Source: Escherichia coli
GTDB lineage: Bacteria; Pseudomonadota; Gammaproteobacteria; Enterobacterales; Enterobacteriaceae
DNA length: 64,000 nucleotides
Reading direction: 5' to 3' (one strand)
Assembly (NCBI RefSeq): GCF_024700885.2
Contig: NZ_CP117016.1
In this document: piece by piece, positions 19,040 to 25,443 of the stretch
Position numbering within the stretch: position 1 is the first letter of the stretch
How the letters are laid out: the number at the start of each line of letters is the position of its first letter
Made by a program: the position numbers and the translations under genes
The notes under the pieces: model-generated
What the model was told of the DNA's origin: nothing
The model's database searches: none
The model's input: the letters and a program-made list of their open reading frames with translations, nothing else

Positions 19040-22000
19040 TTGGAAGTAGAAATGTGGGATGGTGGCTTACAAGAACAGGAAGTATTGGCTATCGAGAAAA
19101 TAAAAGCTGCTTTTTCAGTCAACGTATCTAAGCCTGACAAGCCTTTCCGTAGCGGTTCAATTAGTGAGCAGCTAAAAAGCTATGGTTTTATCGGCAATGA
19201 AATGTTCCCTTGGAAAGGTTATGCAGGTTTTCGATTTGTTGAGGCAAAAAAAGAGGGGGAATTCGATTTAGTTATTGTAACACACTGCAACGTGATCATT
19301 GTTGAACTGAAAGACTGGAACCATCAGCCTGTAACCGCACGCGGAGATACTTGGTTTAAAGGTGATAAGAACATGGGGCGCTCGCCAGTAAGCGTGACTC
19401 GTAGCAAAAAATTCATGCTGGACAAAAAACTCAAGCGTCTGGTAGACCGTTTTACGAACAAAGGCTATATCCCGATTGTTCATTTTTTTGTTGTGATGAC
19501 CGGCAATGCAGATTTCAGCGCGCTGCCGGAGGAACAACGGCGCCATACGATCTCGTTAAAAGATTTCCTGAAGTTTGCCGATCGCGGGAGCTTCAATAAC
19601 TATTTCAAACCGCACCCAGCTACCAAGGTTCTTAACAAGGATTTCCATCTTTTCGATGATTTGTTCCTAGGGCCTCAGACGGCACCAAAAGCCTTGAGAG
19701 TTAATGGCTATGAAGCTAATGATATGATTTTCGAACATCCTAAAAAGGTGTATCGAGAATATCTGGCAAAATCTGAGATATCAACGAACAGCGAAGCGCT
19801 ACTCAGAGTATGGAATTTTAGAAATATAACGGGAACGAAAGCGAATACCCCGGAAGGACGAGCTCAGATTGTTTCACGTGAGCGCGAAGTGTTACAGCAC
19901 ATCAATCACCAGAATCGTGACCTGTATAACCACTGTCTCAGGTCTTTGACGAGTTTTCAGAAAGACGAGGTGACGGCCGAGTATAGCGAAGTCTACGAAG
20001 TTCCGCCGGGTCATGTCCGGTTTAATGAGTTTATCGGAAAATATGGTAAGAACTTTTCTGATATGGACCGCTTGAATGTGGTGAAACTGCTCATTGCAAA
20101 GTTTAGTGATCTCCATGAGATGAAAATTGCGCACAGGGATGTCGCCGATCACAGTCTGTGGATTTCACCTTCAAAAGAAGTTGCTCTTTCGAACTTTATT
20201 TCGGCTTACCACCAGCCAGCCGGAACGGTTGGCGATTACCGTAAGCTTTTATCCGTAGGTGCAGTCCACGTAAAAGACATGCTTGATAAGGGCGAGCTTA
20301 CGCCTTTTCAGCAAGATGTTCATACTCTGGGCCTTGTCGCCTGGCACTTATTTAGCGGTATGCGCATGTCGCCAAAGAGTCTGGAGAAAGTACAGGACAA
20401 CATGCTAAACAGCCAGCACTGGTATTCATCTGTATTACGGGATGCCGTTGCCGCAAAATTCACTTCTGCAACAGAATTCTTTGATGCCCTGAAACAAGCC
20501 GAACCTGCTGGCAAGGATATTCCAACATTTGATGATACTGAGCTTGACCCTTACCGACATGCTATCAATCACGCTCGTCAATACCCGGAAGACGATGGCT
20601 TTCAGTTTCAGGTCGAAACAGTCGACAAAGAAGTCTATATCTCGAAAGGAAGGCTCGTGAAGGCTTGGCTGAATGTTGGGGGACAGGGATACGATCCGTC
20701 AATTAATTTCCAGGTTCTGAAGTTTTTAAAGCAGGTTGAGCGGCTTTCTTCAGTTAAAACAACGTATCTACCTCAAATTCGTGAATTCGGTATCGCATCA
20801 AAATCATCAAGCCTATATATGGTCACGGATCAGGTACAGGGAGAAACCTGGGATAAAATAGCGGTCCCCGATGATGAAAAAATCGACCTCATTGGTAAGT
20901 TTGTCGCCGCCGTTGAGCACTTACATGGTCTGGGTGTTTCTCACGGGGACATCCACCCTGGCAATGTGATATTTGAGACACAGAGCCGTTTGCTTTTTCT
21001 CATCGATATCCCCGATTTTTCACCGTCCGGTGACGAACCTAAAAATCACAGTTACAGCCCTGAATACATTGATAATTGTACTTCTTTTGAACGTGACAAC
21101 TATGCAGTGATGAAGATGTCCTGCGAGTTGCTAGGCATGTCATGGGGGCTGGAATCAGACATTTATCCGACAATCGCGAATGCTATCCGAGCAGAGCTGG
21201 AAGATCCGGTTTTTGGGTTTAAGGATTTAGGCCGCTTTAAAAAAGCGATAGATAGTAATGACCTGGTGCCAGAACAAGACCTGATAGAGATTACTGCAGG
21301 AAATGCCGATGAAATAATCTCTATTCTGCCTGATAACGGGCATCTGTATGTCAAAGTTAAGTCAAATCCTAAAGCGCCAGCTGAAGTAAATGTGACTTTC
21401 TCTGGGATTGGTGGCAGTTTTACTGCGGTGTTCAACAAAGATCAGAAGACGCTGGTTCATGGCTTCAGGCCACGGGCTCGCGTCACAATTCGTAAGCAAG
21501 ATATTGATGAAAGCCAGTTCGAAATTGATACTGGTATCAAGATTATTCCCGGCAGTCCGCAGGATCTGTCGGCGTTGACAGTATTGCTTAATGAAGAAGA
21601 ATCTTTTGCGCGGGCAATCGAGTTGATTGCCGCAACTGAAGATGTTCAGGTACAAGAGCCACTTACGCTTCAGCTAAAAGATACCTTTGCAAGGCTTGAT
21701 AAGCAGACGCTTGAACCTTCTTTAAGAGAAGTGCTGGAAATCCCAACAGTGAAACTGTGGCGCGCCATTCTGGATACTGAAACAGAATCTTATCCAAACA
21801 TTGAAATCAGCGGTGAAGTGGTCCCGGTTGCAGATGCTCATGGAGAGCTTCTTCTCCCTTACTCTGCTGATGTTGATCCACTCGGTGCTTTCAGAAGTAG
21901 TGATGAAGTCGAAGCCTTACAGGTCGATCAGGAAGGTGTTGAGCGATTTATTGGTGAAGTGTCACTTAAGAAGTCAGAGCTCAAAGAGATTCGTCTTGTC

Positions 22001-24010: not shown

Positions 24011-25443
24011 TATCTGATAACAAAGTTACCTATCATGAGGTTGACTTCCTGCTGCCAGCACAGAGGTTTAACATTCAGTTTTCCTATGTTTCCCAGAAGG
24101 GGCTGCCATTTATCCGGGAGTTTGTGCTGAGACTTGTTCATGTAGCTTCGATGAGCAAAGCACAAATAGCAACCTATTTCGGCCTGACCCACCGTGAGAC
24201 AGAGGAGGCGATTTCCGATCTTGTGCAGCGTGGCGAATTGACGCTCTCCTCAGACGGCAGACTGGCCTTAACAGACAAATCAAATGGCTATTTTTCAGAG
24301 GTTGGCGAGATACCGCATCTTTCAACTATTCAGGACAGTGGCTGTACTTTATCCTTTGATTTAGCCACATTTAGTTGCTTCAGCAACCAGGCTTTTCAGG
24401 ACCACTGGAGGGGAGGGGTAACATTAAAGGTTGATGACAACAACATTTCTCAAAGTGAGAAACTGGTTGAGAAGCACTTTCAATACCAGTTTAATCAAAT
24501 CCTGGATAAAGGTTACCTGTCTCACCTGCAGGTTCAGGTCGGAAAAGAACAACCTTCTATCTATACCGTTAATTCTGTTAATAAGCTGCGGCAAATACCA
24601 CTCCGTTTAACAACGGAATTTAAAATGGATAGCGATGGTAAGGCTGTCGAGCGTGAAGACTATGAACAGTTAAATAGTTCGGAATGTGTTCATGAGTTAA
24701 TGGCTGTTGAGATAGCCAGGTTATCACGGCATAACAATACCATGAGTATTTTTAAGGCCATGCAATCCATTAACGATGACCTTACGCTTAAGCTGTTTGA
24801 CTCTAAAACGAATCGACTTAATCCGTTGTTTATCAAAGATATGCAAGCACTGGAAGAATACTCGTCCTCAGGCAGAACGACTTTTTTAGGTCCGGTTTAT
24901 TCTAAAAACAACTGGGAAAAGCTGCAGAAAGCTCTGGCACCAGCGCTCAATCAGCGTATCAGAGATAAAACTGATTATGGAGGTAGCCCGTTCATCTGGG
25001 TGGCACCATCAGATCCCTACTGGTCAAAAAGCATTCGATTTATCTCAAGCCTGAGCAATTTTCTTAGCAAGTCGGCTACGAAGGATAAGCAGCTGTATAA
25101 ACCGGTGCTGTACGTACCTGTCCGGGATGCAGCTGATGCTCGGGTTGCCATACAGTGGAAGTATGAACTTGGGCAATTCCATGAGTACGCTAAAGGACTA
25201 GTTGAGGGGCTGTTAGATGGTAATGTTGAGATCCTTCATCTTGAGGATGAGTTATCTGCCGTTATCTATCATATTTCTCAACCCGAAATATTGCCTGTAA
25301 CGATGCCACTGGGCTTTATCACAACGAACAAAGAAACGGTTAAGATTATTGGTACTCTGGTTACTGAATATATCAAAGGCACCACTGGCTTTGATAAGTT
25401 TCATGACTGTGGCGCAATTTCGGCAATGATTAAGAAAGGTTGA
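24007..25443 (+). CDS. Hypothetical 478-aa partner protein, translationally coupled to the helicase gene
   Basis: ATG overlaps the upstream stop (ATGA, 4-nt overlap); N-terminal region [31 protein letters not shown] resembles a winged-HTH; remainder unassigned. Confidence 0.8.

Follow-up and report, generated by a model that had tools for sequence, protein, structure and literature searches.

Mokosh is a defence family without a solved mechanism. The published family model assigns the nuclease activity to its PLD domain, and the accessible part of the published record reports the loss of defence in helicase (ATP-binding) and PLD mutants for Mokosh as a family rather than for each subtype. The type I system of ETEC H10407 causes abortive infection upon expression of a small phage protein (the 128-aa SECphi27 trigger), and the escape of T-even phages from a type I Mokosh depends on the Alt ADP-ribosyltransferase together with DNA glucosylation. 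The presence of a NERD domain in Mokosh type I was already tabulated in a 2023 review (PMC10952713), and a 2025 study reported that Mokosh type I could not be purified.

The described system closest to the locus considered here is SG199 of E. coli SEC470, listed as "verified" Mokosh type I by Millman et al. 2022 (Tables S2 and S8). Its MkoA is a 1652-aa protein labelled "Kinase-Helicase" and its MkoB a 478-aa protein labelled "HTH"; expressed under its own promoter, the pair conferred phage protection in E. coli (Millman et al. 2022).

Gene Organization of the Locus

The analysed window is a stretch of 64,000 nucleotides from the chromosome of E. coli MLI114. It contains two adjacent, co-oriented genes in one operon, preceded by a promoter-like site:

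18898..18927, + strand: candidate sigma-70-like promoter, TTGCCC-18-TATAAT, the best match upstream of mkoA (10/12)
19040..24010, + strand: mkoA, Mokosh type I helicase-kinase protein; 1656 aa from TTG 19040, 1652 aa from ATG 19052 (RefSeq WP_001333439.1)
24007..25443, + strand: mkoB, 478 aa (RefSeq WP_033866578.1, "hypothetical protein")

The stop codon of mkoA and the start codon of mkoB share the sequence ATGA (24007-24010), with GGAGG located about 10 nt upstream, and an overlapping two-gene arrangement was also found at three distant homologous loci. An ORF of 5 kb whose profile matches span its full length is far from anything that chance would produce. An earlier note on this DNA, made from the sequence alone, had reported an ATGA-coupled pair of 1656 and 478 aa, and both ORFs are indeed present at 19040-24010 and 24007-25443.

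The motif AAGGAG stands 7 nt before the TTG at 19040, and MkoA homologues start at the position equivalent to this codon (consensus MExEIWDGG). Because of this spacing and these start positions, the TTG is at least as good a start as the one chosen by RefSeq and IMG, the ATG at 19052. MkoA residue numbers (D72, K537, etc.) refer to the 1652-aa form. Sigma-70-like sites in the region are not more numerous than the shuffled expectation, so the site at 18898..18927 is a candidate only; it falls within the fragment that Millman et al. cloned with the native promoter, with the start of the SEC470 insert aligning to window position 18768.

Assignment to Mokosh Type I

Both proteins matched curated Mokosh type I family profiles over their full length: MkoA matched PADLOC PDLC03921 (E = 0, 2212 bits; residues 1-1652 on profile positions 1-1603 of 1607), and MkoB matched PDLC03923 (E = 1.9e-151; residues 3-472 on profile positions 4-452 of 454). 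As expected for type I, MkoA combines a COG1112/Upf1-like SF1 RNA helicase domain with a serine/threonine kinase domain (kinase module 2 below), besides which it carries a second, degenerate kinase-like module.

The SEC470 sequences match the window pair, and the two loci agree in protein lengths (1652/478), gene order, overlap and upstream region. The allele of E. coli TUM1886, whose upstream 399 nt agree without a difference with the beginning of the SEC470 insert, served as the SEC470-type reference. Against it, the window MkoA is 98% identical (1611/1652, 41 residues differing) and the window MkoB is also 98% identical (470/478, 8 residues differing), with 29 of the 41 MkoA substitutions falling between residues 23 and 208, a stretch that includes the NERD domain. 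The island carrying the window pair occupies a different chromosomal site from that in the host of the SEC470-type allele.

The H10407 pair matched the other PADLOC model set, PDLC03920/PDLC03922, so the two model sets represent two subtypes. A literature search on the DefenseFinder subtype names found nothing. As a possible link to Mokosh_Type_I_A of UPEC CFE331, the primers used to clone that system were compared with the window and had no match within three mismatches; the DNA-glucosylation result obtained with CFE331 is therefore not transferable with confidence to the SEC470 subtype.

Overall, we regard the assignment of the locus to Mokosh type I as nearly certain. A Mokosh type I defence operon of the SEC470 subtype, acting through the mechanism proposed below, is very probably the best explanation of the locus. 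The mkoA-mkoB system is already known, since it received both its name and its experimental demonstration in 2022, and phage protection is listed as "verified" for the SEC470 type, to which the window allele is 98% identical.

Domain Organization of MkoA and MkoB

Profile searches and structure comparison divided the two proteins as follows:

19208..19456, + strand: NERD (PD-(D/E)xK-type) nuclease-related domain, MkoA aa 53-135
19739..20389, + strand: kinase-like module 1, MkoA ~aa 230-446
20624..21151, + strand: kinase module 2, MkoA ~aa 525-700
21152..22252, + strand: linker without recognisable domain, MkoA ~aa 701-1067
22253..23887, + strand: Upf1-like SF1 helicase core, MkoA aa 1068-1612
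24106..24285, + strand: winged helix-turn-helix, MkoB ~aa 34-93
24739..25440, + strand: PLD-superfamily-fold domain with degenerate HKD motif, MkoB ~aa 245-478

The NERD domain was recognised by Pfam PF08378 (E = 1e-6), and its putative catalytic residues D72, E85 and K87 (FDLVIV...IVELK) are invariant in 26 homologues of 66-92% identity. Kinase-like module 1 matched Pfam Pkinase weakly (E = 0.03) and the PADLOC PD-T4-6 profile PDLC04048 at E = 7e-6. Motif alignment shows that it retains HRD (H361 R362 D363); with HRDxADHS as its catalytic loop and SNF in place of DFG, this module is probably a pseudokinase. The region spanning the NERD domain and kinase-like module 1 matched PglW (PADLOC E = 4e-27; NCBIfam E = 6e-24) and MAD6 (NCBIfam E = 2e-31), and the two domains form a PglW/MAD6-like unit. 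Kinase module 2 matched Pfam Pkinase (E = 1e-5, aa 577-657), PADLOC PD-T4-6 (E = 8e-12) and the PHROG serine-threonine kinase (E = 7e-8); its residues K537, H631-G-D633-x-H-P-x-N638, D652 and D655 are all invariant among the 26 homologues, and it is probably an active small kinase of the Bud32/RIO/APH-like kind.

The linker, which gave no Pfam match, is the least conserved part of MkoA (column conservation 0.56-0.81). The helicase core that follows matched Pfam AAA_11 (E = 6e-38) and AAA_12 (E = 4e-42), the NCBIfam IGHMBP2 family (E = 6e-50) and the structures of Nam7/Upf1, Dna2, IGHMBP2 and Sen1 (E = 7e-30 to 1e-18). Its Walker A motif GPPGTGKT (1090-1097) and the DE pair at 1345-1346 are invariant in the 26 homologues. 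No solved Mokosh structure was found by sequence search.

The earlier note had read a NERD-type N-terminus, two kinase-like modules and an Upf1-like SF1 helicase in the larger protein, and the profile searches upheld these assignments rather than exposing them as spurious, the weaker call, that of module 1, being backed by its PglW/MAD6-like character. The motifs it quoted (HRD, HGDIHPGN, IDIPDFS, GPPGTGKT, IIDEAARS, VGDHMQLPP and SYQGKENRIIILSLTRS) are all present in the translation. MkoB, which it described as a protein without a recognisable catalytic motif, has no HxK motif and gave no significant Pfam match, either as a whole or for its C-terminal alignment.

No PLD profile matched MkoB at the sequence level, PDB sequence searches with MkoB profiles returned nothing relevant, and Foldseek against AFDB50 returned uncharacterised family members only. 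An hhalign comparison of the MkoB alignment with the partial H10407 MkoB gave no signal and is uninformative, given a single target sequence and low alignment diversity. Structure comparison revealed a PLD fold in the MkoB C-terminus, with the non-catalytic FAM83B, TrmB and TrmBL2 among the best neighbours. H422 and G436 are retained at the canonical +14 spacing of the HKD motif, and its Lys, Asp and Asn are absent. These three residues are missing in all aligned MkoB family representatives, and H422 is nearly universal in the family; motif spacing and secondary structure point to H422 as the putative equivalent of the catalytic His. Three of three distant Lys-less MkoB homologues are encoded directly after a 1630-1670-aa NERD-helicase protein, the stop codon of the first gene overlapping the start codon of the second.

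Proposed Mechanism and Candidate Effector

We propose that a MkoA-MkoB complex would survey nucleic acid through the helicase and through the winged helix and PLD-like domain of MkoB. A phage cue would turn the complex on, the kinase module serving as the switch, and the output would be nucleic-acid cleavage that halts phage replication, possibly at the expense of the cell. The cutting enzyme of the SEC470 subtype would more likely be the NERD domain of MkoA than MkoB, because the D-ExK triad is invariant and the PLD-like domain of MkoB is devoid of the catalytic Lys, Asp and Asn. Motif conservation thus suggests, tentatively, that NERD is the effector of this subtype. In the same guarded terms, we raise the possibility of an effector swap within Mokosh type I, in which the PLD-like domain of SEC470-subtype MkoB would be catalytically dead and serve as a TrmB-like nucleic-acid- or ligand-binding domain, with the MkoA-fused NERD as the nuclease. 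The papers searched contained no statement of such a swap, only the tabulated presence of NERD in Mokosh type I (PMC10952713). If true, it would place two unrelated nucleases behind one helicase-kinase sensor in the Mokosh family.

The opposite arrangement would keep MkoB as the nuclease effector, cutting through a non-canonical PLD-like site around His422, and NERD would serve to sense nucleic acid or as a scaffold without activity. It agrees with the published model of PLD as the nuclease, with the PLD fold, with the family-wide retention of the HKD His and Gly at canonical spacing, and with Table S8 of Millman et al., which places the SEC470 gene in the "PLD MkoB" column. We nevertheless consider it unlikely, given the family-wide loss of the HKD Lys, Asp and Asn, the silence of the PLD profiles, the non-catalytic structural neighbours and the invariant NERD triad; moreover, Table S2 of the same study labels SEC470 MkoB only "HTH", as against "HTH-PLD" for H10407. 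The two verified type I subtypes differ in the site of the intact nuclease motif, which guides the choice of residues to mutate first.

Distribution and Genomic Context

The mkoA-mkoB pair was detected in 352 of 5426 complete E. coli genomes (~6%), and 336 E. coli records carry it at ≥99% identity; the identical-protein cluster of MkoA comprises 2349 member sequences. In MLI114, the pair resides on a mobile island of the chromosome that bears an integrase and is rich in pseudogenes. Fragments of a TOTE primase and of an rRNA methyltransferase stand in the pseudogenised surroundings, as do IS1, the iro genes and several IS elements, and an IS100 insertion was noted in the locus of one strain. 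When the neighbouring island genes were scanned with PADLOC, NCBIfam and PHROG, no second defence system emerged, and no tRNA attachment site was found within the window.

The heavy pseudogenisation of the neighbours and the IS100 insertion would fit a pair that is an inactive remnant in MLI114, left to decay as a passenger in a degraded pathogenicity island. We consider this highly improbable: both ORFs are intact and keep all catalytic motifs, the pair recurs at ≥99% identity in the 336 records mentioned above, it is 98% identical to an allele type active when cloned, and the stretch aligning to the cloned insert takes in its upstream region together with the promoter-like site.

RefSeq names the two products "AAA domain-containing protein" (mkoA) and "hypothetical protein" (mkoB), so a defence system present in ~6% of complete E. 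coli genomes is still masked by its names. These generic names, and the failure of any NCBIfam model to reach its cut-off, would speak for a new, undescribed defence-like system, an idea that is virtually untenable in view of the full-length PADLOC MkoA (E = 0) and MkoB (E = 1.9e-151) matches, the "verified" status of the SEC470 pair in Millman et al. 2022 at 98% identity, and the NERD domain already tabulated for type I. The earlier note had favoured novelty and had itself named placement of both genes in a characterised system by profile searches as grounds for giving the idea up; since both fall within Mokosh type I profiles, the claim is wrong by that standard. Its reading of the locus therefore stands for the domains and for the guessed anti-phage role, which is correct for Mokosh type I, and falls for novelty: mkoA-mkoB contributes no new kind of system.

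Comparison with Known Systems

The N-terminal ~400 profile residues of PglW (Pgl/BREX type 2) and MAD6 (MADS) align to MkoA aa ~57-460, beyond which MkoA, unlike these proteins, continues into an Upf1-like helicase. BREX type 2/Pgl was rejected, with NF033442 reaching 84 bits where 990 are required and covering the N-terminal 400 residues only, as was MADS, with NF047741 (MAD6) at 109 bits where 460 are required. A mad8 match (E = 2e-11) was confined to the P-loop region, and no BREX genes, methyltransferase or MADS genes were found among the neighbours of mkoA-mkoB.

Mokosh type II (MkoC; E. coli K-12 YjhR type) has the Upf1-like helicase core in common with MkoA (MkoC match E = 7e-36, aa 1341-1639). 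However, type II is a single protein in which an N-terminal helicase is fused to a C-terminal PLD, without kinase or NERD; we rejected this assignment, as the window has two genes and the MkoC profile covers the helicase part only (profile positions 669-967 of 1136).

The eukaryotic Upf1/MOV10L1 helicases lack the NERD and kinase modules of MkoA, and the PLD nuclease Zucchini (PLD6), found with them in the piRNA pathway, has the catalytic HKD residues that the window MkoB does not. TrmB-family regulators combine a winged helix with a PLD-fold sugar-binding domain and have no sequence-level match to MkoB, which, unlike them, is translationally coupled to a helicase as part of a defence operon.

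The H10407 Mokosh type I (SG202; PDLC03920/PDLC03922) shares with the window pair the two-gene operon, the kinase and Upf1-like helicase in MkoA, and the winged-helix N-terminal half of MkoB (cross-match E = 1e-13). It differs in both proteins: its MkoA has 1215 aa, one kinase and no NERD in the first 399 aa, whereas the window MkoA carries NERD and two kinase modules, and its 602-aa MkoB has a canonical HxKxxxxD motif (HAKIIVCD) and is recognised by two PLD profiles, MkoC and DrmC, whereas the window MkoB ends in a Lys-less PLD-like domain.

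Identification of the locus as Mokosh type I

Translation of the locus yielded two open reading frames (ORFs):

19040–24010, plus strand: mkoA, ORF of 1656 aa
24007–25443, plus strand: mkoB, ORF of 478 aa

In the RefSeq annotation, their products are named "AAA domain-containing protein" and "hypothetical protein", respectively. MkoA matched the PADLOC model PDLC03921 (E = 0, 2212 bits; residues 1–1652 on profile positions 1–1603 of 1607), and MkoB matched PDLC03923 (E = 1.9e-151; residues 3–472 on positions 4–452 of 454). Mokosh type I has been defined as a two-gene system comprising a COG1112/Upf1-like RNA helicase fused to a serine-threonine kinase and a PLD nuclease (Millman et al. 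2022, bioRxiv 10.1101/2022.05.11.491447). Table S2/S8 of Millman et al. 2022 lists two verified type I systems: that of E. coli ETEC H10407 (MkoA of 1215 aa; MkoB of 602 aa, "HTH-PLD") and that of SEC470 (SG199), with an MkoA of 1652 aa ("Kinase-Helicase", N-terminus MWDGGLQEQEV...) and an MkoB of 478 aa ("HTH", N-terminus [11 protein letters not shown]...). The H10407 proteins match the other PADLOC pair, PDLC03920/PDLC03922, so that each PADLOC model set represents one of the verified subtypes.

Over the printed part of the SEC470 proteins (the first 399 aa), the window MkoA and MkoB are 92.5% and 98% identical to their counterparts, and the start of the SEC470 cloned insert aligns at 18768–19162. 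Full-length comparison with the SEC470 type was made via the E. coli genome TUM1886, which matches the printed 399 nt of the insert with 100% DNA identity; 1611 of 1652 MkoA residues (98%) and 470 of 478 MkoB residues (98%) were identical. We thus assign the window system, with very high confidence in its identification as Mokosh, to the SEC470 subtype of type I. The earlier note had proposed a candidate undescribed system of a defense-like kind. The claim that it is undescribed is refuted, the locus being an allele with 98% identity to a type I system verified by experiment; the guess of a defense function was correct. The locus is a known system and does not represent a new kind, and the NERD domain has already been tabulated for Mokosh type I (PMC10952713).

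The 41 MkoA differences from the SEC470-type allele are unevenly distributed: 29 fall within aa 23–208 (window 19118–19675), covering the NERD domain and its surroundings, and only 12 within the other 1444 residues. Such clustering points to diversification of this region or to a patch acquired by recombination.

Gene structure and domain organization

The stop codon of mkoA overlaps the start of mkoB (ATGA), consistent with the translational coupling noted earlier, and a GGAGG motif lies ~10 nt upstream of the mkoB start. RefSeq and IMG place the mkoA start at ATG 19052. TTG 19040 is at least as good a candidate, since AAGGAG is located 7 nt before it and the first residues of MkoA homologues (consensus MExEIWDGG) match this start. 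The annotated start may therefore be four codons short, with TTG 19040 having the better Shine–Dalgarno spacing. MkoA residue numbers here refer to the 1652-aa form (M1 = MWDGG).

All motifs quoted in the earlier note were found in the 1656-aa translation, and its domain reading (NERD, two kinase-like modules, Upf1-like helicase) was borne out by Pfam, PADLOC, and structure matches. The NERD domain spans aa 53–135 (Pfam E = 1e-6), where FDLVIV...IVELK supplies a PD-(D/E)xK-type triad, D72/E85/K87, invariant in 26 MkoA homologues with identity down to 66%. Together with kinase-like module 1 (aa about 57–460), it aligns with the N-terminal 400 positions of the PglW (E = 4e-27 and 6e-24) and MAD6 (E = 2e-31) profiles. 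Module 1 retains HRD at 361–363 within the loop HRDxADHS and carries SNF in the place of DFG, from which we deduce that it is either a pseudokinase or a highly atypical kinase. Kinase module 2 (Pkinase E = 1e-5; PD-T4-6 E = 8e-12) has the invariant residues K537, H631-G-D633-x-H-P-x-N638, D652, and D655, a predicted Bud32/RIO/APH-like, active-looking site. Pfam searches found no recognizable domain at about aa 701–1067, the least conserved region. The helicase core occupies aa 1068–1612 (AAA_11 E = 6e-38; AAA_12 E = 4e-42), and its closest solved structures are Upf1/Nam7 (E = 7e-30).

Genomic context and distribution

A large mosaic island has inserted after phoH, and the pair occupies the end of it nearest the integrase. 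Past DUF2726 come, in order, the tyrosine integrase, a hypothetical protein of 605 aa and low GC, an IS1 remnant, HTH, a protein of the YfjI family, one of the inovirus Gp2 type, part of a TOTE primase, and mkoAB. Beyond mkoAB are an enterotoxin gene, sugar genes, remnants of iro, a chaperone-usher cluster of the Afa type, an ABC/TolC cluster of low GC, and numerous IS fragments. No tRNA gene was detected in the window, and no other PADLOC-recognized system among the neighbors tested.

A similar gene set (window 10294–25443) occurs in TUM1886 (locus L003, 1651–15677): tyrosine integrase, YfjI-family protein, HTH, a hypothetical protein, inovirus Gp2-type protein, TOTE primase pseudogene fragment, and mkoAB, followed 3' by IS66, an M48 peptidase, and a type I restriction subunit. 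This set lies beside clpA in TUM1886 and at phoH/DUF2726 here, and its presence at two chromosomal sites indicates that Mokosh is the cargo of a mobile element.

Other features of the island were as follows:

11683–13500, minus strand: 605-aa hypothetical protein, GC about 0.32, adjoining the island integrase
25509–25856, directly 3' of mkoB: short pseudogene fragments, among them part of a 16S rRNA methyltransferase gene interrupted by an internal stop
25923–27836, minus strand: intact "enterotoxin" gene, virulence-type cargo
42050–46460: decayed salmochelin genes (iroN, iroE, and iroC pseudogenes; iroD intact), virulence-type cargo
46930–50770: Afa/Dr-type chaperone-usher cluster with AfaD invasin, virulence-type cargo
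54200–59140: ABC transporter permease, TolC-family protein, ABC ATPase, and two hypothetical proteins, GC 0.27–0.31, bordered by IS481/IS66 fragments and part of a group II intron maturase gene

Searches of Pfam, NCBIfam, PADLOC, and PHROG gave no match for the 605-aa protein; the TUM1886 island encodes a homologue of 607 aa (L003 5013–6836; 30% identity, E = 1e-72), and the protein is the product of a conserved but rapidly diverging island gene. The fragments at 25509–25856 are relics at the point where the Mokosh module meets the enterotoxin/malX part of the island. The 54200–59140 block stands out clearly as foreign DNA in E. coli.

The window matches the chromosome of E. coli MLI114 (NZ_CP117013.1) with 100% identity. 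Among 5426 complete E. coli genomes, 352 carry the mkoA-mkoB pair; 336 E. coli records match it with at least 99% identity, and homologues of the same architecture are widespread in Gamma- and Betaproteobacteria. In E. coli strain 300444 (NZ_CM128586.1, 4521356–4529718), the locus matches in two pieces, is ~2 kb longer than the query, and contains annotated IS100 istA/istB and a separate "DEAD/DEAH box helicase" call, an arrangement suggesting that IS100 has naturally interrupted mkoA.

A degenerate PLD-like domain in MkoB

The C-terminal domain of MkoB (about aa 245–478) has a PLD-superfamily fold. Its structural neighbors were TrmBL2 (9.7), vaccinia F13 (9.6), FAM83B (9.6), TrmB (9.5 and 9.1), Nuc (9.0), and Zucchini (8.9, 8.7, and 8.4), with SauUSI and BfiI ranking lower. 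A search of 1.84 billion representatives with a profile built on this domain recovered 143 relatives. The aligned relatives share the motif [Y/F]-H ... P-[I/V]-G-F-x-[S/T]-T-[D/N/E], with a His-to-Gly distance of 14, equal to that of the PLD motif HxK(x)4D(x)6GSxN; the Lys, Asp, and Asn of that motif are absent from every one of them. In the PADLOC search, the window MkoB did not match the MkoC or DrmC profiles. The published label "PLD nuclease" therefore agrees with how this MkoB folds, whereas its active site does not fit the label.

Proposed mechanism and comparison with verified systems

As a family, Mokosh systems defend E. coli, and defense is lost upon mutation of the helicase ATP site or the PLD site (Millman et al. 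2022). The H10407 type I system shows abortive-infection behavior, with a SECphi27 protein of 128 aa as its trigger. To evade a type I Mokosh from a uropathogenic strain, T-even phages require both the Alt ADP-ribosyltransferase and glucosylation of their DNA; the cloning primers for that system had no match in the window. Purification of type I Mokosh was unsuccessful in a 2025 study.

MkoA and MkoB would function as a complex, in which nucleic acid would be engaged by the helicase together with two parts of MkoB, its winged helix and its PLD-like domain, and activation would be gated by the kinase module. The NERD domain might be the effector, being the likelier cutting enzyme in the SEC470 subtype, a proposal we hold tentatively. 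The main alternative, that cleavage is still performed by MkoB at a non-canonical site around the conserved His422, retains the motif His and its PLD-like spacing in its favor; given the missing Lys, Asp, and Asn, we consider it improbable.

Three remote MkoB relatives that lack the Lys (profile E = 2.7e-21, 2.4e-10, and 2.3e-6) are all encoded directly 3' of a 1631–1673-aa protein with NERD and AAA_11/AAA_12, with a stop/start overlap at each of the three loci. NERD was not found in the first 399 of 1215 aa of H10407 MkoA, whose helicase starts at residue 460 (Millman et al. 2022). Unlike the window protein, H10407 MkoB contains HAKIIVCD...GSCN and matches the PLD profiles MkoC and DrmC. The pattern is reciprocal: NERD-bearing MkoA occurs with Lys-less PLD-like MkoB, whereas NERD-less MkoA occurs with canonical PLD MkoB, the latter arm comprising one example (H10407). 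The degenerate PLD site in MkoB, combined with the intact NERD triad in MkoA, is the one point worth retaining from the analysis.
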